DNA of 64,000 bases from Curvularia clavata (GCA_023920165.1 CP089275.1:372001-436000); one strand, 5' to 3'; counted from the first letter of the stretch, positions 24,053 through 62,199 are shown. Program-made: numbers and translations. Notes: generated from the letters alone by a model not told the origin.

Positions 24053-27000
24053 ATGCGTTTCTCCAGCGCCACCCTCGTTGCCTGCTTAGCGCTCATCGTC
24101 CCGGGCAATGCCTTCTCAGAAAAACAGTTCGACCGGAACATTTTTGAGAGGCAGACGGAAGGATCTTGTTCAGGGGAACAGCCTCCTTCTTTTGCTCCAC
24201 ACAAGAACTTTTGGGGTGGGTTAACAGCAGCGGAGACTAGGGATGTATTGGCCCTTCTGCATAGTGACGCCGTTGGATTCAACTTAACGGATGCAAATAA
24301 TGCTACAAGGTGAGTTTGACCTGCATAAATATCTGAGATACAGCGAATGCTAACCTAGTATGTAGTCGGGATAACAAAATGTACGTGTTAAACAAGCTAG
24401 CTGATTGCGTATCCATCAAACAAGACTGACCCGTTCTTCAGCATGTCAGTTGAACTCATGATGCCGAACAAGACAGACATCCTTCCTCTGCTATCCAACA
24501 GCAGCGGAACTCCGACTAGGTACGCCTTAGCTGCAATAATGTTTGGAGTTCCAGAGGCGGCCTATCTTCAGGAGTTCAAAGTTGGCCCTCTCCCAATCAC
24601 CAATGCGTCGGCTGTGCTACCCTTCACGTTCGCCAACACCAGAAAGAACCCAAAGATTCCAGTTGTAAACCCAGACGCAGAGGACTATGGTGCGTTTAAT
24701 CTACAGAATATGAAGGAAGCGGAAGATGTAACAAAGAAGCTTTGGAACCTTGTGAGTTTGATGTGATTCTCCACCCCTATGTATAAGTGGCTAATACGAG
24801 CATAAAAAGACGGTTGAGGACGGCCTCCAAGTACCTCTAGCTTTCGCTGCTCCAATTACGGTGTCTGAAGGCCAGGTAATTATGTGGCAAGGCTTCAATG
24901 CCCCAGTCACGAGCATCTACGATACAATCTCTCTTCTGCCGTTGGGCCTTTATATGAGAACGGACATCACCGGTCGCGATCCTAGCAAATGGAAGGTGAC
25001 TGGTTGGGTTTACAACAACGAGTTCTATCCAACTCTGGATGACTTCCGCAAGGTTATCAACGAACCAACCTTTAAGCCTTTGGGAATGAATGTAGACGAA
25101 CCTTGGGCGCATACGCGAACACATGGAGACTCGATGCCTCTTGATAACCTCCCACCACCTGCGCCAGTCCAAGCAGGCAAGGAAAGATTTACGGTTGACG
25201 AGGAGGAAAATTACGTGACCTGGAGTGAGTAACATCCGAGTCTTGCATTCAATGCTCAAACGGTTCTAATGATTTCCTAGTGGATTTCTCGTTCTATGTC
25301 AGTCTTACTCGCGACAACGGCTTGCGGCTCTACGATGTCCGTTTCAAGGGCAAGAGAGTTCTCTACGAGGTGAGCTAGGCTTTACATCACTTATTTAGTA
25401 ACACGACTAACTGGTATCTAGCTTGGACTAGACGAAGCCATCGCACATTACGCGTAAGTCAATACTCGATGCACTAATATGTTCACAACATGCTAACATA
25501 CTAAATAGGGGGATCGACCCTGTACAATCAGGCACATGGTATGGCTTGAAGTCTCTGGCGACGTATGGAAATTTTGCTAAAAGGGTTACCTCAGTTACTT
25601 TGACAGCATGAACGGCTTTGGGCCCACGATGATCTCCCTTGTCAAAGGTGAACAATAAGACTTTAGTGGGCTGTTAAACACAATACTGATCTCAATTCGT
25701 CTAGGCTACGACTGCCCAGCTTATTCCCATTTCCTTAACGTGTCTCAAACTACCGGAGAGACTACGTACACACAAAAGGATGCCTTATGTAAGTGTTGCC
25801 CTAGATCTTGAAATGAGAATCAGAGCACTGATTGGCCAAGGCATGTTCGAAATTGACAAAGGATTCCCTATCCAGCGTCACTCCTGGGCTGGTCATACGA
25901 CTGTCACTAAGAACATTGCTTTCAACGTTCGTGCCATTTACACTATTGGCAATTATGACTACATGATCACATATCAATTCTCTCTCGATGGGTCGATTGA
26001 GATCGCGGTTCGGGCTTCGGGATACATCTCGTCGGCCTTTTACGCCCAAAACGAAGACTATGGTTTCAAGATCCATGATAGCCTCTCTGGATCCTTGCAT
26101 GACCATGTCATTACCTTCAAGGCTGACTTTGATATCTTGGGAGAAGCTAATTCCCTGCAGAAGGTTGCGATTGTGCCCACCACTGAGACGTATGATGAAT
26201 CCCCTCACTACCCAAAAACGAAACGAGCTGTATTAACTTGCGCAAAGGTACAAATGGTCTGGAAATCGGACGCACAAGACCATGAAGGCTGTCAAGAGCT
26301 TCATTGAGAGTGAAGACGAGGGGAAGATTAACTGGTCGCCTAATGGTGGCACAATGTACGCTGTTGTCAACAAGGACCAGAAGAACAAATACGGCGAACT
26401 ACCCGGTTACAGATTTTTCCCAGGTTTGTCGTTACTCGTTTAAATAAGCCATGACCTTTGCTGATCGTTGCAGCGTCCGGTGTTGCCTATCTTACGGTTG
26501 AGGATTCGGACGTCACTCAAAATGCTGCTCACCACACCACCCATCACTTCTACGCTACTCAACAGAAGGATAACGAGATTTATGCGGTAGGCGCATTCAA
26601 TTCTCTTACGCCTGAGGATCCTCAGGTGGACTTCAATGAGTACTTCAATGGAGAGTCTCTCGTACAGGAGGACATGTAAGATTGATTCACCCCCCGCAAA
26701 ACATCATAGTCTAACATGATCAGCGTCGTTTGGTTCAATCTAGGCATGCATCATATGCCTCATACTGGAGATTTACCCAATACTGTTTTCTCCACAGCGC
26801 ATTCTTCCATGACAATTGAGCCCTTCAATTATCTACTAGGGGATCCTTCGCAAGCCAGCACCCAACAGGTTTTGATAAATACAACCGAGGGTCAAGCAGA
26901 GATCACTCGTTATGGTGCTCAAGAAGCTACTTGTCCAGTAGATACAGTATGTTACTTCAGTGTGTTCGGACAGAGATTGATGCTGACGATCTTACTCCTA

Positions 27001-27093
27001 CAGAGCCAGCTGAACCCGGACCTCTCCCAGTACGCAAATACTATCAGTGTGCTGAAGTATCCATTCGACGGATCAAAGCCGGACCGCGCTTAG
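24053..27093 (+). CDS. Secreted copper amine oxidase (TPQ-dependent)
   Basis: Signal peptide; TIGNYDY (TPQ precursor Tyr), SLHDH and GMHHMPH Cu ligands, GYDCP; 13 introns reconstructed, including a 15-nt exon at 24366-24380. Confidence 0.93.
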
Positions 27094-28914
27094 GTACTTT
27101 ATCAATTGGAAGGGTCATGAGACTGAGGATGTCTTGAACCTGAAATTGTGCGACATACGCCGCATGAAGTAGAAATTGGCCTCGAGTCTGGATGCTGTCG
27201 AATATGTAGAAGGCATGTTGGCCTTGATTGTACAGGCGAAGATCAGTACTACTTCGGTCAGTTCGCGTGTTGGGTTGGCCTCCTACCATACATTTTGGCT
27301 CACCACAAATGGCAAAAATCCTTAATTTGCAGCCCAATTCCAAGTTTTATGATTGTCAGCACCCGCAGTTCGCAGTTTGCAACGTGTCAGACAAGATTGC
27401 TTCTTACATAGGTGCCCTACGTAGCAAATAAATTCTCAGCCCATAATTTGATAGCGCGCAGGCGCTTTTTACCTTACTCGTTCCGTCGGTCTAATACCTC
27501 GCATCAATCTATAGATCCCGAAGCGTGAGAGCAGTTCTAACTGTTGCTTTCAAGTAGAAAACGACAGTATAACGTGACATGGTTCGACGTTCTTCTCCCG
27601 CAATTTAACGTTCCGTAGTACGTCTCGAACAAACGTTTGAATCCTTGCCGTCCATGGAAGCGGTAGGTTCTTTTTGCTTCGTCTAGCCGAGGCCGACTCG
27701 GTGACACTACTACCCCACAAACCAGACTACCGGCTACTTTGACAGCGCACCGACATCAAGTAGATAAAGTGCTCCTCCGTACACGAGGCTGGTGATTACC
27801 TGCTCTTCCATTAGGCCTGCGCCGAGCGTTTGGCTATTATGCCGAGGCTGAATACCTTCCGATTGTTCTTCCATCACCAGGTATCATCTTGACAACGTTG
27901 CGCAGTTTTCGTGCACTTACGTCATGCGCGCCTAAAAAAGTTGCATGAGAGAACTGCCGAACGCTCCCCTTGTGACAGGCGGGCATAGTTGATATAGCCC
28001 AATTTACCAATTTACTACTTTTGGTGTGTTCCCCACTCCGCGACACACATGGCAGATACATGCGGAGATTTTGTTACAAACAGAGTCAGTGATGTGCGTG
28101 CACAGTCGATCACCTTCCCTGTTTGAGATGTTTCGGAAACAAAGCGCGGTAGTAGGTTAATTAATCCAACGCGCGGCGTCATTTAGGATCCATGCGTCCC
28201 ATGCGCTGATTCATGCTGTTTTTGTGAGCACTCTTTGACCTGCGAGTTTTTTTTCTCCAAGTCCATGGCTTACGTGATTTGGCTCTTATTTTTGACATTT
28301 TGTGACTACTTGTACTTGTAAGATCAGTGAAACAATGAACACATATGTCACTTGAACGACGTGCTACAATTTTACTTTGGACTTAGACTGAAGGGGTTGT
28401 TGGCCCGTTCTTATTAGCAGGGATTGAGCCAAGAGAAGCTTCTGAAACGGGGAAGTGCCAGACCTTCCCTGTTGTTCTTTCAACGTCGATTGGGTTTATG
28501 CTCTACGCTGGCCTACCGTTCCTTGTCAGAAACGGCTGACATCTGAGTTGCTGATAACACTCTTTGCAGCGGAACTATAGAATCAATATTGTTCCAGGCC
28601 CATGTAAAGAAGAGATAGGGTGTAATAATGGCTCTCAAATGCCGCACAAAAGCAGAAGATACTCGGAAAAACTCTCTAGTGGCTAAGTTACTGGTTGTGG
28701 GGTAAACTCGTATTATAGTACTTGCAGATCCGTGCGCAACCTATGTAGAGTGTTTTGATGAAGGGTGAGTTCACCAACAACGGCGGGTACGGAGATCGGT
28801 CCTGACCATGCCTAGCACCTGAAAGGGTCTCCTTTGGAGGCCAGAAAAACATAAAAGGAGTAAAGACCCGCACAAGAGGTCTGCCGCTAGACTTGCACAT
28901 CACCTCCTTCCAAC

Positions 28915-45224: not shown

Positions 45225-46445
45225 TTACTTTTCATCTAGTAATGCGCCCCTCTTCCAAGGCTGAGTACTTGGGAAATCAACTTTGCAGGGAACTGCATCC
45301 TGGTCCCAATATAACGTGGCATGTCTGAACCATGCTGCATATGTTCCATCAGCAACATCCGAACCCTCATTATCCCTCCAAAGACTCCCCAACGTCTCCT
45401 TGTACACGGCCAATATCATTCCATGTGCCAATTTGAAGCCCCAGCTTTTCTGTAGAACTGTCTGAATGATTTCTCTTGCCTTCTTCTGCTGGTCATCTTC
45501 TTTTGCCCCTCGCTCTGGCATCTTCTGTGACATTAACTCGAATTGCGCCCTCCCATTCCAGCCAGTCAAGTCGTTAATGAGCTGGCTTCCGCTCATGAAG
45601 TCAATTCCATATACATGATTCTTAACATAGTCTGGACCATTCCATCCTTCCACTTCGTCGACAAGACCCATAACCATACTGACGACCTGGCCTTGTATGA
45701 TGTAGTCTGTCAACATCTTTCCAGCTTCCTCTTTATTGATCGTAGGCTTGCCTTCTTCCCTTATCTCAAAGGACCCACCCTGTAAAGGAACACCTTTTAG
45801 CAATGGATGTGCGTGCAGTCCCTCGGTATCTGTTCGGCCTTCCCAAAGTTTAAGGAAAAGTCTATGGCAGCGACCGAAGAATTGATTGCCTCTGTTGCAG
45901 GCAAGGAAGTAATTTGTAAGATTCCTTCCATGCTGTTGTGGGCCTCTGTAGCTCAGAACTTCGTAACCAGAAGAGTGGTCTCCGATTGTTTTATTCCACA
46001 GACGATCTATATCGCCAATCTGTATCATCCCGACGTCTGCGTAAATGCCACCATATCTGAGTAACAGAGGCCAGCGGACAAGATCAGATGTGTGCTGCTT
46101 CGCGTATTTTCCACCTATCATGCCATGCACAAAAGCATCGGGAAACAAGGTCCGGTCTTCTATTTCTAGAAAATTTGCGATATTTAAGGCATCGCTAGGT
46201 TGGCAACTAACCACTCGGATCGTCCAGCCCTTTTTCGAAAATCGGCGATGCCAGGTCCGAACGTTGCGCTTCGTGTAAGGGTGTAAGGCGCTAAAGCCAG
46301 CATGCCAGAAGAACCATACGTTCTTCTGGCTGACGACAGGCCTCATACTCTGCAGCTCGGAATCGATCTCTATATCTGGCCGGAGATCGAGGCTTTGATG
46401 CGGAATGGCATGGCAGCCCTCAGGGATAAGGTGGTAAAAGTCCAT
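45225..46445 (-). CDS. Capsular polysaccharide synthesis-like glycosyltransferase (DxD-type, GT32-like)
   Basis: KNVWFFWHAG, NVRTWHRR, QHTSDLVRWPLL..YGGIYADVG, NYFLAC; intronless from MDFYH. Confidence 0.85.
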   Translation of the reverse strand: MDFYHLIPEGCHAIPHQSLDLRPDIEIDSELQSMRPVVSQKNVWFFWHAGFSALHPYTKRNVRTWHRRFSKKGWTIRVVSCQPSDALNIANFLEIEDRTLFPDAFVHGMIGGKYAKQHTSDLVRWPLLLRYGGIYADVGMIQIGDIDRLWNKTIGDHSSGYEVLSYRGPQQHGRNLTNYFLACNRGNQFFGRCHRLFLKLWEGRTDTEGLHAHPLLKGVPLQGGSFEIREEGKPTINKEEAGKMLTDYIIQGQVVSMVMGLVDEVEGWNGPDYVKNHVYGIDFMSGSQLINDLTGWNGRAQFELMSQKMPERGAKEDDQQKKAREIIQTVLQKSWGFKLAHGMILAVYKETLGSLWRDNEGSDVADGTYAAWFRHATLYWDQDAVPCKVDFPSTQPWKRGALLDEK

Positions 46446-46642
46446 CTTGTGATACAAAAGTTGATGTGCTAAGGTGCGTGTGGCTAATTGAACCATCTCA
46501 GGACGGTTCAACACTGATATATGTAGTGACAGTGAGTTAATATGACTCATGCTGAGCAATGCCAAGCAAGGACCCCATCTACCGTGTGCGTGTGTACAAA
46601 TAGAAAAGTCTCCACACAAAGATAAGAACAGACGAATAATTA

Positions 46643-47240
46643 ACGTAGTGGATACCTAGGGTAGTCGCGCAGCCCACCAAACCTTCGCACCTCTATCAGC
46701 ATATAGCTTCACCATAATACGACCATCGCAATATATATCAGTATAATAGATAGATTAGTTACTAGTTAACTATAGTATCTTTCTTACATGTACGCGCATT
46801 ATGGCCAGTCTCTCTACACCCACTGCAGCGCGCTAAAGCCTATCAGCTGATACCTCATCGCTCTCCTCCATGGCGCTGTTCATAAGCAATGCTGATCTGT
46901 CTCACGTTGCGCTAGTAGATCCTCGCCTTCTCCCTTTATAAACACCCCTCGCTTCTATATCTACTTTTTTTTTTACGCTGGCTACGCTTTATCACTATCT
47001 TTTTAGCCTGCTAGAGACCCTCTGCTAGAACAGCTAGTGGAGTAGGTGTACGCAGCTTCACGTCAAGCTTTGATAGAACACTATCTAGCTAGAGAGGCAT
47101 AAGGCCTGCGCCACAGAAGGCAGAGCAGATACCAGCTGAGGTAGACGATCGATCGAAGGCGGCCTTAAACGCTGGTAGAAACTCGAGCTTAGTAATGTGG
47201 TTGATGTGGTTGCGTATCAGGCTCTCCACCTCACGGCTAG
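46643..47240 (-). mobile_element. Fot1/pogo DNA transposon 3' remnant, RIP-mutated
   Basis: HITKLEFLPAFKAAF...GL.P...VLSKLDVKLRTPTP and terminal zinc knuckle RCSGCRETGHNARTC; ends ACGT+TA at 46641-46646. Confidence 0.88.
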
Positions 47241-47758: not shown

Positions 47759-47803
47759 CGGGATCGTTCCCGTCACTTATCTACCGTGCCGGGTCCACGG
47801 CCG
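47759..47803. promoter_or_regulatory. Two CGG-N8-CCG Zn2Cys6-type sites with an intervening GATA site (CTTATC), permease promoter
   Basis: CGGGATCGTTCCCG 47759-47772; CGGGTCCACGGCCG 47790-47803. Confidence 0.65.
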
Positions 47804-48054
47804 ACCCCCGCATTTGATCTTATGCGACACATTGATCCCTACTGGGTCGCCTTAAACAGGCTAGCCGTATCAGACTTGTGCAAGATGCCCTGTGCAGGAA
47901 CCTGACCAGGCAGTCCTTCGTGAAGGATATGTATACAGGGCCTTGGACCGCAATTTCCAATCTTTTATCTCGACACTCTCTATGCCTCTTTCACCTCTTT
48001 ACTATCCAATCTTGTATACACCCAGTCTTGTATAATATTTTGGGCCCTCTGACG

Positions 48055-49972
48055 ATGGAGGATAACAAGAAAGAGAAGGTCATCGATATCTCGACCGCTG
48101 GGGACCTCTATCTAGTCGAGACAACGGGCGAGCCTATAGCGGGCCATGTCGGCAATGCAGACGAGCTCCAGCGACATCTGGGAAATCGTCAGCTGCAATT
48201 GATTGCTATTGGTATGTATTTACTAGGTTATCGCAAGAGCCGACGTGAAAAAACGGTGGAAAAGTCTCCGAGTTCTTGCAGGGGCACTTCACTTTGCCAA
48301 TTCTGAGATGTTTACTGACATGTCTCAGGTGGATCCATCGGAACAGCAACCTTCGTCTCCATCTCCAGTGGTCTGCTCAAGGGCGGGCCCGGTTCCCTCT
48401 TCCTCGCCTACACCATCTACACCTGCATGTTGGGATTAGTCAACAACTGCCAAGCCGAAATGAGCTCCTATATGCCCGTTACTGGTGGTTTTATTCGCAT
48501 GTCTGGTAAATGGGTCGACGAGGCTTTGGGCTTCATGATTGGTTGGAGTGAGTCCTGTGTTCGCGGTGAACTAATTGACTATACTAAATTACTGCAGACT
48601 TCTTCATTTACGAGGCCATTCTTGTGCCCTTTGAAATTACCGCACTGAACCTTGTCTTGTCCTTCTGGCGCGATGATATACCCGTGGAAGCCGTCGTGGC
48701 GGTATGCATTGTGCTCTACTTCTGTATCAACGCATTTGTTGTCAAGTGGTACGGAGAGTGCGAGTTTTGGCTTGCCCTTGGAAAAGTGTTCCTCCTCCTT
48801 ATGCTCTTCTCTTTCACCTTCATTACTATGGTCGGCGGCAATCCCAAGCATGACGCGTATGGCTTCCGCTACTGGAAGAATCCTGGCTCTTTCGCTGAAC
48901 ACATTACAACGGGTCCTCTCGGCCGATTCGAGGGTTTCCTTGGTGCCCTGTGGAGTGCAGCTTTTACCGTCGTCGGCCCAGAGTATGTGTCCATGGTTGC
49001 CGGCGAGGTCAAGAGCCCGCGAAAGTACCTCAAGCAGGCGTTCAAGGCAACATATGCGCGTTTCGGTCTATTCTTCATCGGTAGTGCGCTCTGTGTCGGT
49101 ATTGTTATCCCGTACAACAATACAACTCTAGTCGATATCTTCAACGGCAAGGCCGGTGGCGCCGGAACTGCGGCGGCCTCTCCATACGTCATCGCCATGA
49201 ACAGTACTTCTCCCTTCTAAATCCTAACACGAGTACTCTAAAGCTAATTTCTTCTCTAGACCTGGGCATCCATGGCCTTCCACATCTCACCAACGCCCTC
49301 CTCGTAACCTCGATTTTCTCCGCTGGCAACGCCTACACCTACTACGGTACGCGCTCCCTCTATGGCCTCGCCATCGAGGGCCAAGCGCCTCGCTTCCTGA
49401 GAAAATGCACCAAGGCCGGCGTCCCCATCTATTGCCTCTGCATTACGACCCTGTTCCCCTTCTTCGCCTTCCTCAACGCCTCCTCGGGCTCGGCCAAAGT
49501 TCTGACCTGGCTCACCAACATCATTACCGGCGCCCAAATCATCGACTACATTGTCATCTGCATCAACTTCATCTTCTTCTACCGCGCGTGCAAGGCGCAG
49601 GGCCTCGACCGCCGCTCGCTGCCATATTTCGGCCGCTTCCAGCCGTGGTCTGCATATATCCCACTGGCGTTTTTGACGTGTGTGGTTACGTGCTACGGAT
49701 ATACGACGTTCCTCCCAGGGAACTTCACGGTTGACGACTTCTTCACTTACTACATGATGCTGCTGGTGGACCCGGTGCTGTTCATTGGCTGGAAGCTGTG
49801 GAAGAAAACAAAGTTCATTAAAGCGAGCGAGGCGGATCTGGTATGGGATAAACCGATTATTGATGCTTATGAGGATGCACTAGAGGAGGAGAAAGTAGGG
49901 TTCTGGAGGGATGTGGGGAATATGTTTGGGAAGTGCTTCATGAAGAGGAAGAAGGTGGACGAGGAGAAGTGA
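48055..49972 (+). CDS. APC/YAT-family amino acid permease (proline-permease-like)
   Basis: LQRHLGNRQLQLIAIGGSIG, AEM, YGECEFW, GFRYWKNPG, SPYVIAM, TRSLYGLA.EG.AP; introns 48212-48328, 48548-48597, 49204-49259. Confidence 0.95.
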
Positions 49973-50389
49973 GGGACGGAGTGGATGAGGTCCATGACTT
50001 TGTGGAGCTAAACAGAGGATCCGGTGGCATAATTACATTGTATACCTAAATGGGACGTTTGACGTCCACGGAAATCACACGGTTTCAATCCTATAAATGG
50101 GTTCCGCTCGCTACTCTTGCTAAGCATTGAATTTGACCAGAATGCTCCGACCAGGGCTCTACACTTTCGCAACATTGCATCCCACCCCATGGTAAACTTT
50201 TGAAGAACTGGATTTGAGGTCCTCGTGCGGAGCTAGCTTTGATTAGGCACAATGTTCGCTGCTCGCAGCCACCCAATCCGCCAGCCCTCAAGTCCTAGCG
50301 CGGGAACGACGCATGTCACGCATCACAATCAGCGCGGAGCCTCCGATTGCCAGCCTGCATCTCTCCGCGTCCGCGAATATGCGGCCACT

Positions 50390-50403
50390 CGGGTGGCATT
50401 CCG
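50390..50403. promoter_or_regulatory. CGG-N8-CCG site, aminotransferase promoter
   Basis: CGGGTGGCATTCCG. Confidence 0.65.
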
Positions 50404-50568
50404 GGCATACAGCTCGAATCCCACATACATTGCCCCGACGCCCAACACGGCTAGAGCATAGTCCAGTATACATGTATACATATATACAAGTGCAAAATCC
50501 GTGTGTACCTCCTGTTTCCGCGACATCTTTGTAGCGACTTTCTATCAGGGCTTTCTGCAATTACAAAC

Positions 50569-51900
50569 ATGTTCCGCAGCGTTCCCCCCAGCCCCGCAGA
50601 CCCCGTGTATCTCCTCTCGCAGCAGGTACGCGAGGACACGGCGCCTGAGAAAGTTGACCTTGGCGTTGGCGTGTATAGGAATGAGAGGGGGCTGTATCAC
50701 GAGCTGAGGGCGTTGGGGGCGGTTTGTACGCCAGTCAAAATTGGTAATTCAAGTCTAATCACAAAGGGCACAGGCAAAGCGTATCCTCGCACAGCAAGAC
50801 GCGAATCACGACTACGAAGTGACAACGGGCAGCGCGGCGTTCCTGACTAACGCTGCAAAAGTGCTATTCGGATGGGAGGCAGATATTCTGTCTTCGGGGA
50901 GAGTGACTTCTGTACAGGCCATCTCAGGCACGGGTGCCATCCACCTCGGCGCCCTCTTCCTCGCCCGTACGCCCTCATTCCAAGGAAAGAAAGTCTACAT
51001 CGGGACCCCAGCGTGGGGAAATTACGTACCGCTGTTCAACCTCGTTGGCTTCGAAGTGGTGACGTACAGGCACTACGATGTCTCGACCGGAACAGTGGAC
51101 TTTGACTCGGTGCTTACAGCGACGAGAAGCGCAGATGCAGGGAGCATATTCGTGCTACAGGGATGCTGCCACAACCCATCTGGTGCCGACTTCTCGCTCG
51201 CGCAGTGGGATAGGCTCGCCGATGAGATGCAGGCGAAGAAGCTGTTCCCGCTGTTCGACATGGCATATCAGGGGCTAGGTGCGTCGCTGGATGAAGATGC
51301 ATATGGTCTGCGATTGTTTGCGGGCAGGAACTTGGAACTCCTCGCTTGTCAGTCTTTTTCGAAGAACTTTGGATTGTATGGGGAGAGGGTAGGTGTGCTG
51401 CATGCTGTGAGTCAGGATGCGGATGTTGCGGCGAGGGTGTATGAGAGATTGAGGTGCTTGATTCGGTGGGAGTTCTCGTCCAGTCCGGCGTATGGCGCGC
51501 GACTAGTGAACATTATACTCAGCGACAACGAATTGCGACAGGACTGGCAAACAGAATTAGCGCAGATTCAGAAGCGGCTTGCCGACAATAGAAAAGCACT
51601 GCACGCGGAGCTGGTTGAGAAGCGTAGTGTGAGTATTTCCCATTGCCCTCACTTGATGGCATTTCGCTGATTCGAATATGTCCAAAGGCTCCAGGCAACT
51701 GGAGCTCGATCCTCTCGTCAAATGGCCTGTTCTGTTTCCTTCCGCTGAGCCCCCAGCAATGCGAACGGCTTGCCGCTGAGTTCCACATCCACATGCTACG
51801 GAACGGGCGCATCAACGTGGCCGGGCTGAACCGGAGCAACATGGATCACGTAGCTTCGGCACTCGTGAAAGTGATGAGCTCACCGTTCTCACGCTTGTGA
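50569..51900 (+). CDS. Class I PLP aminotransferase (aspartate aminotransferase family) with PTS1 -SRL
   Basis: KVDLGVGVYR, SGTGA, HNPSG, DMAYQG, SFSKNFGLYGERVG (PLP Lys), GRINVAGL; introns 50722-50773 and 51629-51687. Confidence 0.95.
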
Positions 51901-51969
51901 GTCTACATGTTAACAAGCCAGATAGCTCGTAATGGCGATATCTGGGCAGCACCGATGCAATGTGAGGAT

Positions 51970-52007
51970 CGGGAGCGTGCCCGACATGTTGCTCGGATGG
52001 GCAGCCG
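51970..52007. promoter_or_regulatory. Two CGG-N8-CCG sites upstream of the Zn2Cys6 regulator
   Basis: CGGGAGCGTGCCCG 51970-51983; CGGATGGGCAGCCG 51994-52007. Confidence 0.65.
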
Positions 52008-52340
52008 GTGGCCCATGCACGCGCTAGAATTAAAAGTGCCGTAATAGTATGCTGAGGGAACAATATCCCGCAAGTAGATTCAAACTTGCAGGCTGCATAT
52101 CAGATGACGTGTGAATTCGAAGGACCTCTCGTGAGGGAGCGTTTGTTGAAGGAAACGGAGAACTGTAGAAAGCTCAGATTAGAGAATGAGTCGCGCTAGA
52201 TAGCCACATTCCACTAGCGTTGGACTTCCCCGCAAATTGCCATCTCGTAACGTGACGCTTGACCTCATCTCAGGCCACGCCGCCTATAGTTGTATACCGT
52301 GAGTTCGTTGCATTGCTGCAGCTAGCCATGTGACACGTTT

Positions 52341-55104
52341 ATGACTGCAATGCAGACGATGCCCAACTCGAGCGAACAGCGACGCGCTTCTAAGCGATCT
52401 TCCAACGCGTAGGGAACCCTTCCGATAGACGTGCATCCGCTTATCAGTGAAGGTGCTCACGGTGTCGACGGCAGAAGATCAAGTGCTCGGGACTGGAGCC
52501 TTGTTCAAACTGTACCAAGAGGAACTTGAGCTGTGTTTTTGACGATCGGGACAATAAGGTGCTGGTCACGCAGGGGTGAGTCAGGCCTTGTTTAATTTTG
52601 TTGAGATCAACAGGCACGATTCTGCTATCTGTCCCGAATCAGAAACCTATGTCGCCTTTTGGAATGCAATGGCAATCTGCAAACTGACTGATTAATAGTT
52701 ATCTCTCTGACCTGCAACAAAAGGTCGCTCGTTTGGAGCGAAGTTTGAGTCACATAGAAACTAACCCTGCCTTGGCCCGTGAATCTCGGGAGCATGGCGA
52801 GGATCAAGTTCAGGCTGGCAGCTTCCACCGGGAACAATCTCTTCAGCCCCCTCGTTGTGGTGACCGTGAACCGGGGGAGACCTCTCGATCGAGTCCTACA
52901 GAGACGCGGGACAACTCTCCAAAGACAGATCAGGGGAATGGGGAAAGCCATGAATTGACAAACCCCTTGCTTGAATCGCCCTCCAAGTTCATGGCCGCTT
53001 CATCCGGGAGGTCATTCTATTTAGGGACTTCCTCCAATTGGTCTTTCCATGGCCAGGTGCTGAATGTAGTTCATCAGCATATCCGCAGAACCCCTCTGCC
53101 CGGAACAGACTTCCTGTTCGATGGGTCGGCGTACGATCTTCCTTGGGTAAGTTGTCATAACTTGATACATTGAAGGCCTTGGCTTTGTGTACCTTGCTGA
53201 CTTGCATGCGATTCCCAGGACGGCACTCGTAGTGTGCTAGAGACAAATGCTCCTGTCATTCCAAGTATCGATTACGCCATATTTCTTGTCAATGCTGTCA
53301 AGTTCCATTGTGGTCAGTTGGTACATTTGTTTGATGAAGAAGAGTTCAACGCCAAGATGTATGCGTTCTACGGGAATGCAGAACCCAACAAGCCTCAGGA
53401 AGGCTTGTGGTATGTTCAGTTTCTACTAATCATTGCCTTTGGAAGGACACTTGTACAACGCAAACACCGAGCATCTAAGCCGCCTGGAGCCGATTTCTTC
53501 GTACACGCTCTTCAGCTACTACCTGATACCAGCCGATTGTGCCGAGAACCACTCTTGGCATCAGAGATACTATGCGGTATCGCTCTCTATCTGCAAGCAC
53601 TAGACTCGCGCAACGCTGCACATGTAACAGTAAGCTTTGTCTGTTTACAAATTTGTAACAATCACTAAGTATCATCAAGATAGGCCAAGCGATGCGAATA
53701 GCATTAGCAGAGGGTATGCACACGGACATGCCAGTTTCAGAACTAGGAGAAGCCTTCGTTCAGCGATGTCGCAAGATCTGGTGGTCCATCTATATTCTTG
53801 ACAGGCAGATGAGTTCGCAGATGGGCGTACCGCAGTCCATACGGGACGATGAGATAACGTGCCAGCTCACACACTTTCCTGGCTCGGTTCAGCGGACAGC
53901 GGCGTTGAAGATGCAGATCAGGCTCGCGCGTATATACGCGGATATAGCGAGGAGTAAGTCGGCTGAGCTCTGGTCACGGACATTATCCAACACGATGGCG
54001 ATCAAATCGGGCATAGGTCCGTTCCAGGCTAACAATACGCAGGCGTTTATGGCCCGAAAGGTCGGCTTCGTAAGAAGTTTGTCATTAGTATCAAGGCTCT
54101 GCTCGACGACATGGCAGCAATCGCAGAGGAACTACGAAATTCCTTCCCTTTGCATTCCGATGAGCGGCTCGGTGGTATATCAAGAATGCCTGCGCATCTG
54201 CATCTAATGTACTATCAGGTATGTCAATACTCCATGTGTGCTGCGTGAATGTAATATCTACCAAGTTTATCGCGCCGTACATGCATGTCTGAACTCAATG
54301 GAGCTGCTACATTGCGTTCCCCGCTGATCATTTTGCGTAGACAATCGTTGTAACAACGAGACCACTACTGTTTTGTTGTCTGAAGAAAGTGTTCGAGTCT
54401 CCAAAAGAAGTGGGACCGCTGGTATCGTCTCGCAAGATCAGGCCTCTGCTAAGCATGTCATTGGATGCTTCACAGAAGATTCTCAACATCCTTGAGAGCC
54501 TGCAAGAGCAGGACTTGTTAGGTATAACTAGTGTAGCGTATTGACAAGTCCATCAAAACTGACAGATTAAATAGAGACTTTTCTTCCATGGGACCTCGAC
54601 TCCCTCTTTGTGTCCACAATGGTTCTCGTCTTGATACGATTCGTCGATGATACCCTTTCCGAAAACAGTTCCGCCTGGATAAGCAAGGCCTTTGCTTTCC
54701 TCGATACCATGATATCAAACGGGAACAAAATTGCCGAATCCAGGGCTGCTGAGTTGCGTAAGCTGGAGGAACTGCTATCCGAGTACTCTGTAAACCGGAC
54801 TCGCCAGCAATACACGACACCTCTTCTACCTCAACAACAGCAACCCGTGGGTCAGTACCAACCACCACCAGATAGGAACTTGATGCGCTCCGACATGCAA
54901 TCGCCGCAAATCATGATGAATTCCGAAGCTATGGGGATGTATACTGCATTTAGCGACGAGAGTAGCGGATTCGGCGACGATTTGACTGCAGAGCAGATTC
55001 TTGCTGTGGCGGAGTCAATGGATCTGGGTACGACTGATTGGCTCAACACGCTCGCGACTATGGATACATATCAAATGGTGGATCCACAGGAGCATCACAT
55101 CTAG
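52341..55104 (+). CDS. Zn(II)2Cys6 transcription factor with fungal TF middle domain (Put3/PrnA-like)
   Basis: CSRCRRQKIKCSGLEPCSNCTKRNLSC after intron 52409-52452; YLGTSSNWSF; RCRKIWWSIYILDR..S..MG.P; about 7 introns; start may be 52341, 52350 or 52359. Confidence 0.92.
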
Positions 55105-55417
55105 AATGTTATTATATCGATCTGGGAGTTCATGAAAACGGCGAGAGTTAAGTAACAAGGTCTTGGGATGTTCTTGCAAGTGTTCGGCTCATGGTGCATC
55201 CAAAACACATACAATGCAGAAATTAACCATAAGAGATGTGGCGTGTAGTAAGATGATACGGAGCAGGCTCTGCAGGGGAGACCTTTGGTTTGTTTCGGCA
55301 CATTTGTCACAAGCAAGGAGTTCTCAGTCATGTCAAACTCGACAGTCAATTTTCAGAAATAAAACGATAGTCTAATTCGCGCTCCAATCTGGGCTATCCA
55401 ACCATGAACCCACAACA

Positions 55418-56799
55418 CTACAACTTCGCCCTGACCGGTTGCTCGGACAGATCGCGGAGCTCTCTGACATCTCCCACTCGCCAGCTCACGTCGGCTTCTT
55501 CAATCGTCTCGCCATTGACGGGCTTCGGTTCCCTCCACCGCCACCTCTTGATCGGCTGCTGTCCGCCCGACGCGTTCAACAGGTCACGCACCCAACTACC
55601 TACGATAGGGAACATCTTGAAACCGTGACCGGAATCGCCGGTCATGACCATAACCGAAGCCGATGTCTTGGGCACGTAGTCGATGATGAAATCCGAGTCA
55701 TCGGTATCAGCGAACCAGCACAGTGACTTCTTGACCAACGGTCGGTCCGCAAGGTGTGGCAGTGTCTGACGGAGGAGCTCCTTCATCTTGAGCTCATCCT
55801 CGTACGGTACAAAGCGGTTGACTTCTTCCGGCGCTTTCGACACACCACTTGAAGGATCCGTATTGATGTAGCCGCCGCCCATCGGGCACAGCTTGAGGAG
55901 GTTCGTCTTCGGGTCTGGCTCGAAAAAGAAGCCCAAGTCACGGGCATATACAACGGGAATACCGCGGAGCGCCGCAGTCTCGTCGTCAGTGAGGCGTACA
56001 TGGCCGACAGACCACGACTTTGCTGAGACATTGGTGCTCAGCTCCGGCAGAATCTTGTGCGCAGCAGCTCCTACTGCAACAATAATGAGGGATGCAGGGT
56101 GCACGCGACCATCCTGGGTTCGTACACCAGTGCCCCGCCTCCCCCGACTGGTGTTCTCATAGACAACTTCCTCAACCGCGCCGACCTTCTCACCGAGGAA
56201 AAACCTCACACCGTTAGACCTCGCAGCACGATAAACACCACGCAGCGCATTCGCAGAGTGCACGTAGCCGTCATATGTGTTTATATAGCCTCTCCATCCG
56301 GGCAGAGCGCCAGTGAACTGCCAGCATGCTTGAAGGAGATCTTTACGGTCACTAACCTTACGGACGAAAGGTCTTATGACGGAGCTGCGCTCTGCCGCTG
56401 CTTGAAACCGCTCCATTGTGTCGACGGCCTTTTGGGGAGCAGCTTCCGAGCAGCAGTTTAGAAAACCGACACGGTGGAAGTAGGGGGCGTAGAAGGGTGT
56501 TTGCCATTCTTTCATTGCTTCCTGATTCCTGGGTTAGATGGGGGTGTTTTTCTTTTTCAGCAAACGCAATTTGAGGGGGGGAGGCATACGATTGCAAGAT
56601 CAGTGTACCAGTCGTCCTCATACTCTGCTCGTGCAATCTTATTGAGATCGTTTGCAGCGGACCAACGCGAAGGAATCTCTTCGTCCTTCTCGAAAACAGT
56701 GATGTTGGTGTATCCGTTTCTTGAGAGCTCGAGCGCTGTGGATAGACCAAATGCACCGCCGCCAATAATAGCAATAGGTTCGCTCCCAGGAAGAGTCAT
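55418..56799 (-). CDS. FAD-dependent oxidase of the sarcosine/pipecolate/fructosyl-amine oxidase family with PTS1 -AKL
   Basis: IIGGGAFG, SAANDLNKI, LCWFADT (flavinylation Cys), GDSGHGFK; intron 56589-56522. Confidence 0.93.
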
Positions 56800-57070
56800 T
56801 TTGAGTAGCTGTAACTATTCAATGAAACTGCGGTGCAGGAATGTGTCGCAGAGATGTCCCTACTTTGTAAACAACACGTCGCGAAGCGATTTTGCAACAA
56901 TCTCAACTACAATCAGGCGATGCTTGGCCGGCATCGGAATTACCGGAATAGGAACTGACGATATGCAATTGCGGGGAATTGACGCAGGTAGTGGGGCAAC
57001 GCGAGCTGGTGCCCTACGGGAGGCCTGCCGATGTATTGTCTATCATCATGCACATGCATTGAACTACTGA

Positions 57071-57181
57071 CGGAATGCTTACCGTATGGCTTCAAATTGA
57101 TCCCATGATAGCATACCGTTAACGGAGGCCACGATGCGCTTCTGGAACAAGGCAATGAATACGAGATCGGGCAATTAACCG
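57071..57181. promoter_or_regulatory. Two CGG-N8-CCG sites in the divergent oxidase/membrane-protein promoter
   Basis: CGGAATGCTTACCG 57071-57084; CGGGCAATTAACCG 57168-57181. Confidence 0.65.
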
Positions 57182-57335
57182 AAAGCTCAACACATCAGCC
57201 AGTGACCATTTTGGTCCGCGTTACATACACGTAGACTTGGGCGATTGGATGTATGTGCTTGAGAATTTGTGGACATCTTGGTTTGATATAGTTGGAATTG
57301 GGAAACTGGCCTTTTTTCGCTTCATCACTGTTCTC

Positions 57336-58239
57336 ATGACGGAGCTTGTCGAAACTCAGAGCATCACTCGAGGTTGGCGAAACAGTCGACTTCCTAGCTA
57401 CCTAGCCGGCGATGTTTCTGCAGCTTGCCTCTCAGCTACACTCATATCGCCCATTCTCACGGCGATAGACAAGTGGGTCCCCTTTCACACTTCTCCATTT
57501 TCATATTGTAACCTCTCATAGAGCTGTCGTCGAAAATGTCTCCTCAACCACGCGGCCCCTCTCAACCGCACTGAAAGAAAACATACTCTGCACCATCCGC
57601 TACCCAAAGTCATTCTTTGCTGCAAAACCCTTCTTCTACATGTGGATGCTCTATGCAGCCACCTACACTACTGCCAACAGCCTGAACACCCTCACTAGCA
57701 TCTCCATGAGCAAGTCCTCAGAATTCCTTGCCAATTCACTCATCTTCATCGCAACGTGCACCGTCAACGTTCCACTCGGGGTCTACAAAGACATCTGCTT
57801 CGTGCAAACGTTCGGCAGGCGGCCCCCAGGACCCGTGAATACGCCTCAAACTAAACCACCGCTTCCCCCTCGATCTCCCACCAAATTTCCCAAAGCTGTA
57901 GCAGCAACTTTCCTCGCTCGCGACGCCATTACCATCCTGGGCTCCTTCACCCTCCCGCCCATGCTCACACACCGCATCCCCATCGCCGATCCCGCGGCGC
58001 AAATGGCGGCGGCGCAGCTGCTGGTGCCAGTCCTGTCGCAATTAGCGGCAACGCCTGTGCATCTTCTGGGGCTGGACTTGTATTCGATTCCTGGAAAGGG
58101 AGAGAGAGGAGAACGGGCGCGGCGGATACGAAGAGGATTAGCAGGGACGACGGCGGTGCGATGTGCTAGAATTGTGCCAGCGTTTGGGGTGGGGGGAATT
58201 GTGAACACGGGGTTGAGGGGGTGGTTCAGGGGGGAGTAG
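57336..58239 (+). CDS. Uncharacterised membrane protein, mitochondrial-carrier-like (resembles the S. pombe SPBC365.16 family)
   Basis: SPILTAIDKAVVEN, LYAATYTTAN, GVYKD, FLARDAITI, TPVHLLGLDLY, RIVPAFGVGG..N; intron 57473-57521; family call from memory. Confidence 0.8.
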
Positions 58240-58855
58240 AGGATGGTGGTATGAGGGCAGAGAGGTTGTGAGGGTTCGAATTGAATGTTGATAATATGTG
58301 GGGACGGCGATTAAACAACCGTTGTGTTTGTGGCCAACATCCAGCTTCTAGATAGGCACGTTCCAGAACAGCAGCTTCTTTGGAACTACGACTGTGTTAC
58401 ATTGTTTTTTATGTTTATGCACCTTCATTCTTGGTGAGTGGCTCAGATATGAAGCACACTTAGAAAACCGGGGATAAAGAACATTCAAAAGCGGCAATAG
58501 CAGATCATTTCTACCAAGTGTATATCGCGTAAGAGCAAGCCGCATTAGGCAATGGAACAAGTATGATTACGAATGTGCTAGTAGCCAAGCTAGGTATGCA
58601 TACCACGAGCACTAGGATATTCGAAACTGGGCAGCCATCTCAAGCTTCAGGCACCAATAAAGCCAATGGAGCTTCTCGATATCGATTCATTCGCTTCAGT
58701 GTTCGTTGCATACTAGATGCAGACGATTCGATAGTCGGTTCCAGAAGGCTACCATCGGCTTCTACAGGGCTAGAGACAAGAGTAACCGCCCGGATCATTA
58801 TTCCGTTATCGATCACGCACTACACGTATAAGCTAAAACGCGGCGCTCTGCGAAT

Positions 58856-58869
58856 CGGCTGCCTGTCCG
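58856..58869. promoter_or_regulatory. CGG-N8-CCG site, proline dehydrogenase promoter
   Basis: CGGCTGCCTGTCCG, with TTATC GATA-type sites nearby. Confidence 0.65.
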
Positions 58870-59120
58870 TTGTATGACTACTTATCGGGAGCAGCATGCG
58901 TTGCTCATGGGTTAGCCTACTTTGTCTACGGAAGCACAGATCTCGCTGGAGAAGCAGATGCGGGGTTGTCGTTTTCAGGTGCCTGTGTATGGCTTGGTGG
59001 GGTATACAGCAAGTATATGAAGATGGTTATTTTATTGTAATGGTCCGCCATTTGGTCTCGAGGCTACCTTGCCCATTGAACGTTTCTTCGCTCAACTAAG
59101 AGACGCTACCCGGAATAACA

Positions 59121-60653
59121 ATGCTACCATATAGGATCGGTGTGGCGACCACAAGGAGATTGGCAAAGAATAGGTTGGCCACTGTATCTTGCCTCCAGGT
59201 TCGGTGGCACACTGGTGTCATTCCACCGACGAGGAATGTCGGAGCACACACAGGAATGAGCAATGATACAACAACAATATCGCGGACGACAAAAGTATTC
59301 TCTCAAGAGGTAGCAGCATCAGATGCACCATTGTAAGTATGATTATGGCCCCTCGTTCTGGCCTGCACAAGCAGTGGGAACAACTCAAAAACCTCCACTG
59401 ACAAAATCATGAGAGCAAAAATGCCTCTTGAGATGTTCCTTCGATCTTTTTTCATAGCCACCATATCTTCTAAGAGATACCTTTTGATACCCTCCTTGAA
59501 ATTGTTGTCATTTTTCGCGAAACCAGGCAGGAGCTACCTTTTCAACGTGGATCGGAATCCCGTCCTCCATGGAATCCTCAAGAAGACTTTCTATAACCAG
59601 TTTTGTGCGGGCGAGTCGAAGCAGGAGACGAAAGCTTGCTGCAAGTCTTTGAACAACCTCGGTTTCAGAGGAGTCATCCTCACATACGCCAAAGAGATGG
59701 TGTTCAACCACAAGAGCAAAGCATCGAGCGTCCACGCTGAACAAGCAGCAAAAGCAGAGACCGTATCAGCACATGATCCCGTGATCGAAGAGTGGCGCGT
59801 AGGAACGCTCGCCACGGTCGACATGATCGACAAAGGCGACATCCTCGCACTCAAGACTACCGGTGGCGGGCCCGCCGTGGGAGAGGCCTTCCACAGAGGC
59901 GAGCTGCCGCCACAGCAGATGATGGATGCCCTCGACGAGATTGCAACCAGGTGCAAAGAACGCGGAATCCAGATCATCGTAGACGCCGAGTCGCAGTACT
60001 TCCAGAAAGGCATCGCTCGCACGGCGCTCGAGCTGATGCGGAAGTTCAATCGCGAGCCCAAAGTCGTCATCTACAACACATATCAGGCGTACCTAAAGAA
60101 CCAACCCAGGTATCTCCAGCAGCATCTCGCTGAGGCAGAGAAAGATGGCTTCACTCTCGGCTTGAAGCTCGTTCGAGGCGCGTACATGTTGTCTGACGAC
60201 CGGTCTCTGATCCATGATACAAAGGAGGACACTGACGCAGCATACAACGGCATCATGGAGGGTGCCCTCCAGCAGAAGCTCTGGGATTTTGGTGTCTCGC
60301 GACCGTTCCCGGCGCTCAACCTATTCCTTGCTAGCCACAACAAGAAGAGCGTCATCACGGCACAGCGATTGCATGTGCAGCGGGAAAAGAGTGGATTGCC
60401 TACAGTGCCGGTTGCCTTCGCACAGCTGCATGGTATGTCGGATGAGGTTGGTTTTTCGCTTCTGAAGGAACAGTGCGCAGACGGAAAGGCACCAGATGTT
60501 TTCAAGTGCTCAACCTGGGGGAGCATGGGGGATTGCGTGGCGTATCTTTTGCGGAGAGCGGTAGAGAATCGGGATGCGGTGTTGAGGACTAAGGATGAGT
60601 TCGATGCATTGAAGAAGGAGTTCTGGAGACGGATGGGACTTAGGAGAGCGTAG
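59121..60653 (+). CDS. Proline dehydrogenase family (PRODH), divergent paralogue with mitochondrial-type presequence
   Basis: FYNQFCAGE, VDAE, YNTYQAYLK, KLVRGAY, ASHN, AQLHGMSD, YLLRRAVEN; Arg-rich, acid-poor N-terminus; intron from 59333. Confidence 0.95.
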
Positions 60654-61081
60654 GAGACAGGTTTCACGTCATAAGCGCATGAAACAACATGAATAAAGTC
60701 ATAAGATTGATATTTGTTTGTTTCCCAGATCTTTGTGGGTTTTGTAATCAGCAGTGTTTCTCTTCGCTCCGACTCATTCCCGTCTCTGAGCAGCTATACA
60801 CAGCTGTACGTTGTAGGTCATTCTTGAGACTGTCTCACAAGCACGGAAATGTAATCGTCTATTCGTGTATGTCGGGCCCTATGTCTTCAAGCGACTCGGG
60901 CTGAATATCCCCAAACCAAGAGGTTGCCATGAATATCTGTGTTCTTGGAAAGACATCCGCCTATTTAGATACAGAAAGCGTCTGACTCATCCATACACAT
61001 TGCTAGGCATCATCATCTCTGCGGATCGATGGTGTCATGAACGATAATAATGCATCGCGATGTGGGGCAGGGGCACCCAAT

Positions 61082-61095
61082 CGGCGAGGCAGCCG
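61082..61095. promoter_or_regulatory. CGG-N8-CCG site, P5C reductase promoter
   Basis: CGGCGAGGCAGCCG. Confidence 0.65.
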
Positions 61096-61224
61096 TTGCT
61101 ACTTCGGCCGAAGGGTAACGCCGGCTCTCAGCAGAAACGATACACAAAACGTATCACCGAACTTGCGTAAAGTATTATTTCTCCTTGTTTGTAGAAACTT
61201 ACCAAACGATAATACAAGAACAAC

Positions 61225-62199
61225 ATGGCTGGCTCTACTCTGTGCATTCTTGGCTGCGGTAAATTATAAGACCCCAACGATAAAATCACCATCTCACATA
61301 GAACCCCAGGCAATCTAGGAACATCCATATTGGAAATTTTAATCGAGGCCCCAGAAGGCTCCGGAGTCTGTTTCACGCATTTCATAGCCTGTGTATATAG
61401 TGCTGCATCGGAAGAACGGTTAGCAAAGCGCTTTCCCAAGGAGAAAGAGTCTGGGAAACTTGTCATCTCTCGCAACCAGAACGCACGTGCAGTCTCAGAT
61501 GCCTCAGTCGTGATTCTAGGCGTGGATCCCGCAGACGTCGAAGCAACTCTAAAGGACGACGGCGTCGCAGCGGGTCTGAGGGGCAAACTTGTTATCAGTA
61601 TTGCCGCAGGTTGGTCGCGCGAAAGCCTACAAAAGATCATCTCCTCTGCCCAAGGATCACCAAGCAGAGATGAGAGAACATGGGTCCTCCGCACCCTTCC
61701 CAACGTGGCGGCGCAGGTGTCCCAATCGCTCACTGCAATCGAAGACCCAGACCCAGACATGCCTCACAAGCACATCAAAACTTGCGAAGCCATCTTTAAC
61801 CAGCTCGGCCGCACGGTGCAGCTCGCTCCGAAACTCATGGCTCCCGCATCTGCCGTGGGTGGCTCGACACCCGCCTTCTGGGCCATCATCTGCGACGCCT
61901 TTATTGATGCGTCTGTTGCAGTGGGCGTCCCTAGAAAATCTGCGCAAGAGATGATATATCAGAGCATGCGGGGCTCGGCGGAGATGTTGCAGAGTGGAAT
62001 TCAGCCAGGGGAGTTGCGGGATATGGGGACGAGTCCGGAGGGGTGCACAATTGGGGGGATTATGGTTATGGAGGAGATGGGGGTGAGGGGGGCGTTAGGA
62101 AAGGCGCTGAGGGAGGCAGTCACGCTTGCACGTTTGATGGGCAGCGAGAGGGAAGGGCTGCATATTAATGATACGAGGGAGAATACGGGTAGGCAGTGA
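61225..62199 (+). CDS. Pyrroline-5-carboxylate reductase family (divergent paralogue)
   Basis: LGCGNLG across intron 61259-61309, VISIAAG, RTLPNVA, GSTPAF, TSPEGCTIGG. Confidence 0.93.

Follow-up and report, generated by a model that had tools for sequence, protein, structure and literature searches.

Which compound would a fungus process with a run of adjoining genes that pairs a proline dehydrogenase (PRODH) with a Δ1-pyrroline-5-carboxylate (P5C) reductase and adds a permease, an aminotransferase, a Zn2Cys6 transcription factor, an oxidase, and a carrier-like membrane protein? Such a cluster lies at positions 47759 to 62199 of a 64,000-nucleotide stretch of Curvularia clavata DNA (GCA_023920165.1 CP089275.1:372001-436000), which we call the window. 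An earlier note, made from the sequence alone, read it as a cluster for the catabolism of a proline analogue, with hydroxyproline and pipecolate as candidates, and set it apart from the canonical prn cluster. We consider it probable that the cluster is a Pleosporales form of a fungal imino-acid utilization regulon, of which L-proline would be the most likely substrate and trans-4-hydroxy-L-proline from plant wall proteins a probable one.

Gene set, shared motif, and synteny

Gene models were built by hand from stop-to-stop frames between 47.8 and 62.2 kb and from Pfam matches, yielding seven contiguous genes from 48055 to 62199 (Table 1). The window sequence is fungal, with short GT..AG introns. 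Families were assigned with Pfam and NCBIfam profiles and PDB sequence searches, and the cluster frames carry the Pfam domains AA_permease, Aminotran_1_2, Fungal_trans, DAO, Pro_dh, and P5CR_dimer with F420_oxidored. We also mapped to the region the contigs of four public sequencing runs from related organisms, mostly 90 to 99% alike; the runs are not on record as RNA, and their contigs behave as transcripts in having spliced joints. GT..AG joints in these contigs confirmed 12 of the 16 modeled introns, namely, all three of the permease (runs X1 and X5), all seven of the factor (six of them in four runs), and the single introns of the oxidase (X1, X9, and X11) and the reductase (X9 and X11). 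Contig pieces of PRODH from X11 and X9 start at 59414 and 59421, and one run shows a joint at the second aminotransferase intron, with 5 odd letters between. The seven contiguous genes that the earlier note had described at this place were thereby confirmed by the Pfam, NCBIfam, and PDB searches and by the transcript joints. Contigs of X1 and X5 cross the aminotransferase unspliced (50668 to 52148), with the neighboring genes spliced in the same runs; retained introns, antisense RNA, or DNA carry-over could account for them.

The motif common to the upstream regions is CGG-N8-CCG, the first copy of which begins at position 47759. The whole window holds 23 copies, compared with 11.2 ± 3.2 after shuffling, and none of 100 shuffles reached 23. 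The cluster's 5' intergenic DNA, 4.0 kb in all, accounts for ten of these copies, and each of its six regions has one or more (binomial p = 5e-7), in agreement with the earlier proposal of one motif shared by all genes. Enrichment is limited to the N8 spacing: the same regions contain no copy with N6, one with N7, one with N9, none with N10 (the Put3 type), and two with N11. PrnA-type sites (CCGG-N-CCGG or CCGG-N6/7-CCGG) were absent from all six 5' intergenic regions. The Zn2Cys6 factor encoded in the cluster is presumably the protein that binds the CGG-N8-CCG sites. GTATAC palindromes were dropped as a candidate cluster motif, as 15 of 100 shuffles reached the window total of 12; seven of these 12 lie in cluster promoters, at 47931, 48014, 50040, 50466, 50474, 52292, and 59002.

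A metagenome scan with the carrier-family alignment found 21 loci from fungi, several being near-duplicates, in which genes were placed by tblastn with the window models; protein identities to the window range from 36 to 81% in related loci. The full order of permease, aminotransferase, factor, oxidase (on the minus strand), carrier, PRODH, and reductase recurs in loci L002 and L011/L012. L008 and L009 keep the same order without the aminotransferase (six genes), and L019 keeps the factor, oxidase, carrier, PRODH, and reductase and adds a P5C dehydrogenase. The carrier adjoins PRODH in 15 of the 21 loci, and four of the remaining six are too short to tell. Consecutive locus tags place the cluster neighborhood in Paraphaeosphaeria minitans, P. 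sporulosa, Kalmusia, Neocucurbitaria, Alternaria gaisen, Plenodomus lindquistii, B. maydis (Bipolaris), Penicillium argentinense, and Aspergillus wentii. The motif travels with this order. In five diverged loci, with four to six 5' intergenic regions each, CGG-N8-CCG occurs in 24 of 26 regions (binomial p = 2e-4 to 4e-3). The expectation that the genes would be linked in other genomes was therefore borne out, by a common order and motif in diverged fungi.

Two further gene families join the cluster in these relatives. In L019, an aldehyde dehydrogenase gene adjoins the factor, and we identify its product as a P5C dehydrogenase because yeast Put2 is its top match in the PDB (1.5e-145). Elsewhere, the gene lies between PRODH and the carrier (L015), upstream (L009), or at the edge of the locus (L013). 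The second family is that of dihydrodipicolinate synthase (DHDPS), which also includes 4-hydroxy-2-oxoglutarate aldolase (HOGA). L009 has such a gene directly upstream of the permease, and in L011/L012 and L002 the tail of one shows just where the flank ends; the top PDB match of the L009 protein is an uncharacterized Coccidioides protein (1e-93). CGG-N8-CCG also precedes the P5C dehydrogenase and DHDPS-like genes (L009, L019, and L015). Directly downstream of the reductase, L002 encodes an FAD-linked oxidase (15382 to 17017; FAD_binding_4 and FAD-oxidase_C, of the D-lactate/glycolate dehydrogenase type), which could have a bearing on glyoxylate or glycolate formed from hydroxyproline.

PRODH and P5C reductase appear as one fused protein in at least 18 public gene models (630 to 700 amino acids [aa]), and one 799-aa family member is a merged model of PRODH and carrier. 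In the window, PRODH ends in a stop codon, a 571-bp spacer with a motif copy separates it from the reductase gene, and the two have separate transcript contigs. Since PRODH, reductase, and carrier are separate here, the fused public models are probably annotation errors, and real fusions may exist elsewhere.

Table 1. Genes of the cluster and CGG-N8-CCG sites upstream of them, in window positions
Feature	Position	Strand	Details
g1, amino-acid permease	48055-49972	+	4 exons, 564 aa; AA_permease on 3 exons, E 4e-15 to 2e-44; TIGR00913
g2, aspartate/aromatic-type (class I) aminotransferase, C-terminal -SRL	50569-51900	+	exons 50569-50721, 50774-51628, 51688-51900; 406 aa
g3, Zn2Cys6 factor	52350-55104	+	8 exons, 733 aa; N-terminal CX2CX6CX5CX2CX6C; Fungal_trans 2.9e-11
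g4, FAD oxidase (fructosyl-amine / sarcosine-pipecolate oxidase family), C-terminal -AKL	55418-56799	-	exons 56590-56799, 55418-56521; 437 aa
g5, six-helix SLC25-like membrane protein (predicted fold)	57339-58239	+	exons 57339-57472, 57522-58239; alternative upstream ATG at 57249 less likely
g6, PRODH, basic N-terminal presequence	59121-60653	+	exons 59121-59332, 59414-60653; 483 aa; Pro_dh 2.8e-48
g7, divergent P5C reductase, no presequence	61225-62199	+	exons 61225-61258, 61310-62199; 307 aa
two CGG-N8-CCG sites	47759-47772, 47790-47803		upstream of permease
CGG-N8-CCG site	50390-50403		upstream of aminotransferase
two CGG-N8-CCG sites	51970, 51994 (span 51970-52007)		upstream of factor gene
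three CGG-N8-CCG sites	57017, 57071, 57168 (span 57017-57181)		divergent oxidase/carrier promoter
CGG-N8-CCG site	58856-58869		upstream of PRODH
CGG-N8-CCG site	61082-61095		upstream of P5C reductase

Horizontal origin of the cluster

The window oxidase matches a Curvularia clavata protein at 100% identity and its B. maydis counterpart at 98.4%; identity is 92 to 93% with those of Didymosphaeriaceae, compared with only 68 to 71% for other Pleosporaceae. In a maximum-likelihood tree of 34 oxidase rows, three Pleosporaceae copies nest within Didymosphaeriaceae with supports of 100/97, 100/96, and 100/100. When these three are constrained to group with Alternaria, Stemphylium, and Decorospora, the log-likelihood falls by 289 units (approximately unbiased [AU] test, p = 2e-83); the constrained group was named after inspection of the tree but follows NCBI taxonomy. 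The PRODH tree agrees with that of the oxidase, and the carrier is 93% identical to that of B. maydis, 78 to 80% to those of Didymosphaeriaceae, and 49% to that of Alternaria. This nesting, together with the pattern of identities, indicates horizontal transfer, and the Curvularia/Bipolaris lineage seems to have received the cluster as a unit from a Didymosphaeriaceae-like donor.

B. maydis, the closest named relative that bears the cluster, encodes two PRODHs; the second is a native copy that groups with those of B. oryzae, B. sorokiniana, and B. zeicola. The earlier note had allowed that its reading would fall if these were the only PRODH and P5C reductase copies and acted only on L-proline; in B. 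maydis, the cluster PRODH is not the only one. Curvularia kusanoi has an oxidase that the tree places with Didymellaceae (Macroventuria and Didymella; 100/100) and not with other Pleosporaceae, which points either to another incongruence or to an assembly containing a foreign contig.

The membrane protein beside proline dehydrogenase

The protein encoded between the oxidase and PRODH has no Pfam match even at an E value of 10 and no NCBIfam match. It has 746 homologs in 90% clusters, all organisms named among the 120 listed being Pezizomycotina ascomycetes, and its family comprises 1281 representatives at 50% identity (E up to 1e-3). An AlphaFold (AF2) model built from 23 sequences (pLDDT 85.4, pTM 0.81) has six long helices. 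Foldseek placed the mitochondrial carrier UCP1 at the top (E 0.011, TM 0.58), and carriers make up 7 of the first 10 matches listed (ranks 1 to 11). With VIA-align, UCP1 scored Z 12.8 (250 residues, root-mean-square deviation 4.8), a value in the grey zone for helical proteins and suggestive only, followed by Tetrahymena carrier 8bqs_DS (Z 11.5) and the bovine ADP/ATP carrier (Z 8.4). In length, in its six long helices, and in these whole-length fold matches, the modeled protein resembles SLC25 members such as UCP1 and the ADP/ATP carrier.

Sequence comparisons point the other way and, along with that modest Z score, weigh against a carrier identity. Mito_carr was found in none of 30 sampled family members, the family profile finds no PDB sequence, carriers included, at E values up to 10, and hhalign comparison of the alignment thirds gives probabilities below 1%, i.e., no threefold repeat. 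Lacking both the Mito_carr signature and a detectable repeat, the protein belongs to a separate, uncharacterized family. The label "carrier-like" in the earlier note thus agrees with the predicted fold and finds no counterpart in Pfam or Mito_carr signatures. On the strength of the model, we suggest that the protein resembles, and may descend from, an SLC25 carrier, although by sequence definition it is not a member. Its fold and its linkage to PRODH suggest a location in the inner mitochondrial membrane. We raise, as a tentative proposal that we rate at somewhat under even chances, that this six-helix protein founds a diverged branch of mitochondrial carriers and is the missing fungal mitochondrial transporter of proline (or of proline/P5C, or hydroxyproline), and that the regulon, carrier included, moves between fungal families as a unit.

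PrnX is an ornithine-cyclodeaminase-like protein. We set aside the identification of the carrier as PrnX: the prnX product is 40 kDa according to the available part of PMC5983819, compared with about 31 kDa here, and the name PrnX is absent among the 120 listed homologs.

We took the carrier start at 57339 because orthologs begin with methionine there and because transcripts have a joint at 57250. This joint, seen in contigs from X9 and X11, leads on to 57300 through 13 other letters, so the 5' end of the mRNA departs from the plain genomic reading through either a small intron or an indel in the relatives. At the other end, the frame stops 11 codons before the end of the B. maydis protein (58215 to 58290), whose tail, VEDGGMRAERL, can be read on in a different frame beyond six consecutive G's; either one base truly differs or the homopolymer was misread. 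In L017/L018, a distant relative of the carrier (10001 to 10847; 38 to 39% identical) stands alone, with none of the cluster genes inside 10 kb, so the family includes unlinked branches, which may carry other substrates.

Enzyme families and candidate substrates

The cluster PRODH has no PDB sequence match by phmmer. It is 57 to 71% identical to PRODHs of Alternaria, Pyrenophora, Penicillium, Aspergillus, and Colletotrichum, forms one group with them in the tree, and has homologs named proline dehydrogenase or oxidase. Judged by these comparisons, it is an ordinary fungal PRODH and no special paralog. The reductase combines an NAD(P)-binding domain (PF03807) with a dimerization domain (PF14748; P5CR_dimer, 1.6e-29) and is a diverged ProC (TIGR00112, 7e-54; PDB 3gt0, 1.8e-24; human PYCR1, 2.7e-15); exon 2 alone scores 183 bits against TIGR00112, for which the cutoff is 196.75. 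The canonical substrate loop of P5C reductases is S-P-G-G-x-T. The window enzyme has SPEGCT where the aligned Bacillus enzyme has SPGGTT, and SPEGCT is kept in all seven related loci.

The aminotransferase matches Aminotran_1_2 (2.5e-53), NF006719 (1e-90), and AspAT and TyrB entries in the PDB (1e-66 to 1e-57), and its -SRL tail is found in all three distinct cluster aminotransferases, including the L002 and L011/L012 copies. The flavoprotein matches the fructosyl-amine / sarcosine-pipecolate oxidase family (DAO, PF01266) over its whole length. Its best PDB match is Amadoriase I (2e-49 over 331 residues), followed by Amadoriase II (1.5e-44), with monomeric sarcosine oxidase far weaker (1e-7 to 2e-9). 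It resembles the amadoriases in family and length and keeps the Cys aligned with that of Amadoriase I "CW.ADT"; its glycine-rich stretch reads SGHGFK, compared with SGNGAM in Amadoriase I. Unlike fungal fructosyl-amine oxidases, it sits among proline enzymes and not among genes for sugar-amine use. Databases name its homologs, automatically, "sarcosine oxidase/L-pipecolate oxidase" or "L-saccharopine oxidase." An ending that resembles the peroxisomal targeting signal PTS1 ([SATPH][KR]L) is present in 61 of 65 full-length homologs (SKL in 36, AKL in 16, TKL in 4, PKL in 2, and ARL, SRL, and HKL in 1 each).

From these families we infer every substrate and transport direction in the following scheme. 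The permease would bring in the imino acid, and the Zn2Cys6 factor would bind CGG-N8-CCG before every gene and switch the set on. The SLC25-like protein would move the imino acid over the inner mitochondrial membrane, perhaps swapping it for P5C, and PRODH would oxidize the imino acid to P5C or 3-hydroxy-P5C. A P5C dehydrogenase, whose gene is in the cluster in relatives and would be elsewhere in the genome here, would then form glutamate or 4-hydroxyglutamate. The -SRL aminotransferase and the DHDPS/HOGA-like aldolase found in the cluster in relatives could convert 4-hydroxyglutamate to pyruvate and glyoxylate. A cytosolic P5C reductase would return P5C that forms in, or leaks into, the space outside the matrix to the imino acid, as yeast Pro3 does in arginine breakdown. 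The peroxisomal oxidase would be a side entry for some N-substituted or cyclic amine; its family, its peroxisomal tail, and its constancy are the arguments for such a role.

Mammals degrade 4-hydroxyproline in mitochondria with PRODH2, ALDH4A1, GOT2, and HOGA1. At the level of families, PRODH and an aminotransferase are present in the window, and a P5C dehydrogenase and a DHDPS/HOGA-family gene are present in related loci behind the same motif; together these make up the mammalian four-enzyme set, which supports the hydroxyproline candidate and strengthens that part of the earlier note. The four families are all found in the pan-cluster, never all in one locus that was seen whole. Relative to the mammalian enzymes, the window aminotransferase has a peroxisomal tail and no mitochondrial presequence, and the DHDPS-like protein is not specifically HOGA1-like. 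The earlier view that the substrate is a proline analogue and not proline holds to the extent that hydroxyproline is a candidate. It gives way in that PRODH is ordinary, the cluster does not look closed to L-proline, and the core of carrier, PRODH, and P5C reductase is widespread. As PRODH falls in the general fungal group, L-proline is probably a substrate too, and we read the cluster as the proline utilization locus of this lineage, widened to hydroxyproline.

Several observations weigh against this reading. It is odd for a catabolic set to include a reductase that regenerates the substrate, and the oxidase is needed for neither the proline nor the hydroxyproline route. No P5C dehydrogenase was found in the window (Aldedh in open reading frames from 1 to 47.8 kb and 62.1 to 64 kb; tblastn), nor was a DHDPS-like gene found there, the window ending 1.8 kb past the reductase. 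The DHDPS-like protein of relatives matches human HOGA1 at 1.7e-16, no better than it matches several aldolases and synthases of the family. The aminotransferase is absent from L008, L009, and L019, and its transcripts are unspliced in two of the four runs. Because the P5C dehydrogenase and DHDPS-like genes are missing in the window and the aminotransferase is missing from those three loci, the hydroxyproline branch is not a fixed part of the cluster.

The variable presence of the aminotransferase and the DHDPS-like gene speaks for a plain L-proline cluster equivalent to prn or PUT, which would run on the permease, factor, carrier, and PRODH; the aminotransferase, oxidase, reductase, and DHDPS-like genes would be passengers or redistribute nitrogen, and hydroxyproline would play no part. 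The same can be said of the grouping of PRODH with general Pezizomycotina enzymes, to which it is 57 to 71% identical, and of the Put2-type P5C dehydrogenase that joins the cluster in relatives. We nevertheless think this account unlikely. The supposed passengers bear the same CGG-N8-CCG sites and hold their place and orientation across 30 to 50% protein divergence, the aminotransferase retains its -SRL tail, and L-proline breakdown requires neither such an aminotransferase nor an aldolase. Another reading, close to that of the earlier note, has the oxidase take the committing step for a modified imino acid other than L-proline, such as pipecolate or N-methyl- or N-glycated proline, with PRODH and P5C reductase acting on its products. 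The family of this oxidase includes fructosyl-amine, sarcosine, pipecolate, and saccharopine oxidases, the gene is constant from Pleosporales to Penicillium and Aspergillus, the altered reductase loop SPEGCT is kept in 7 of 7 loci, and B. maydis has a second PRODH beside the cluster copy. That second PRODH, however, is a native copy of the same kind of locus and no separate housekeeping type; the native-type PRODH of B. zeicola is modeled as a fusion with P5C reductase. Moreover, the more distant locus L015 keeps the carrier, PRODH, P5C dehydrogenase, and P5C reductase with no oxidase within its 9 kb, and no enzyme was seen for the steps after Δ1-piperideine-6-carboxylate or for demethylation products. 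We regard such a pathway as quite improbable, and nothing beyond the family of the oxidase speaks for the pipecolate and the N-methyl- or N-glycated proline that the earlier note had offered.

A proline-P5C cycle is established in animals and plants. If the cluster served such a redox shuttle, cytosolic P5C reductase, a carrier exchanging proline for P5C, and mitochondrial PRODH would pass electrons from cytosolic NAD(P)H to the respiratory chain, and nutrient use would be secondary. It would explain why a reductase and a dehydrogenase for one metabolite pair are kept together with a carrier in most loci, and many public models fuse PRODH with P5C reductase. Yet the motif of these three genes also precedes an uptake permease and, in relatives, a P5C dehydrogenase that would drain the cycle, and we give the shuttle the smallest chance of the explanations considered, a very slight one. 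Utilization of L-proline, probably extended to hydroxyproline, thus stays our preferred reading.

In yeast, P5C outside the mitochondria is reduced to proline by Pro3, imported, and reoxidized by Put1 and Put2. The window reductase matches the logic of this PUT system; the yeast genes are unlinked, and the cluster promoters contain no Put3-type CGG-N10-CCG. The A. nidulans prn cluster is similar in its clustered Zn2Cys6 activator, its YAT-family permease, and its PRODH, and the window's relatives add the P5C dehydrogenase. According to the available part of PMC5983819, prn consists of prnA, prnX, prnD, prnB, and prnC, with PrnA sites of the form CCGG-N-CCGG or CCGG-N6/7-CCGG; the factor, a gene of unknown function, and PRODH follow one another in one orientation in the window, as prnA-prnX-prnD do in that account. 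The window differs in having no P5C dehydrogenase and in its extra oxidase, SLC25-like carrier, P5C reductase, and aminotransferase, to which relatives add the DHDPS-like gene. Both gene makeup and motif therefore bear out the earlier statement that this is not the canonical prn cluster.

Beyond the cluster, the upstream neighbors are unrelated to it and include a copper amine oxidase (24400 to 27100), a cytochrome P450 (30122 to 31750), and a carnosine-N-methyltransferase-like gene (11733 to 12983). The adjoining gene is glycosyltransferase-like (45228 to 46655, minus strand). The G+C content of the flanks (44 to 47 kb and 62.2 to 64 kb) is 0.41 to 0.47, below the 0.47 to 0.57 of the cluster.

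Our literature search, which left most subscription journals outside, found no paper on a fungal hydroxyproline route or cluster or on a PRODH-P5C reductase cluster. The available part of a 2023 Candida preprint (10.1101/2023.01.17.524449) calls the fungal mitochondrial proline importer a major outstanding question, and mitochondrial proline transport has been assigned to SFXN1 in human cells only, as far as the available part of a 2025 preprint goes (PMC12236812). A protein with a predicted carrier fold, from a family without a Pfam entry, that stands beside PRODH in 15 of 21 loci and in several named genomes makes the importer question testable through a single gene. The cluster also offers a defined cis-element, CGG-N8-CCG, with a candidate regulator, and a likely way for fungi to use hydroxyproline from plant wall glycoproteins. 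For the Pleosporales, it provides a clean case of the horizontal transfer of a primary-metabolism cluster between families.

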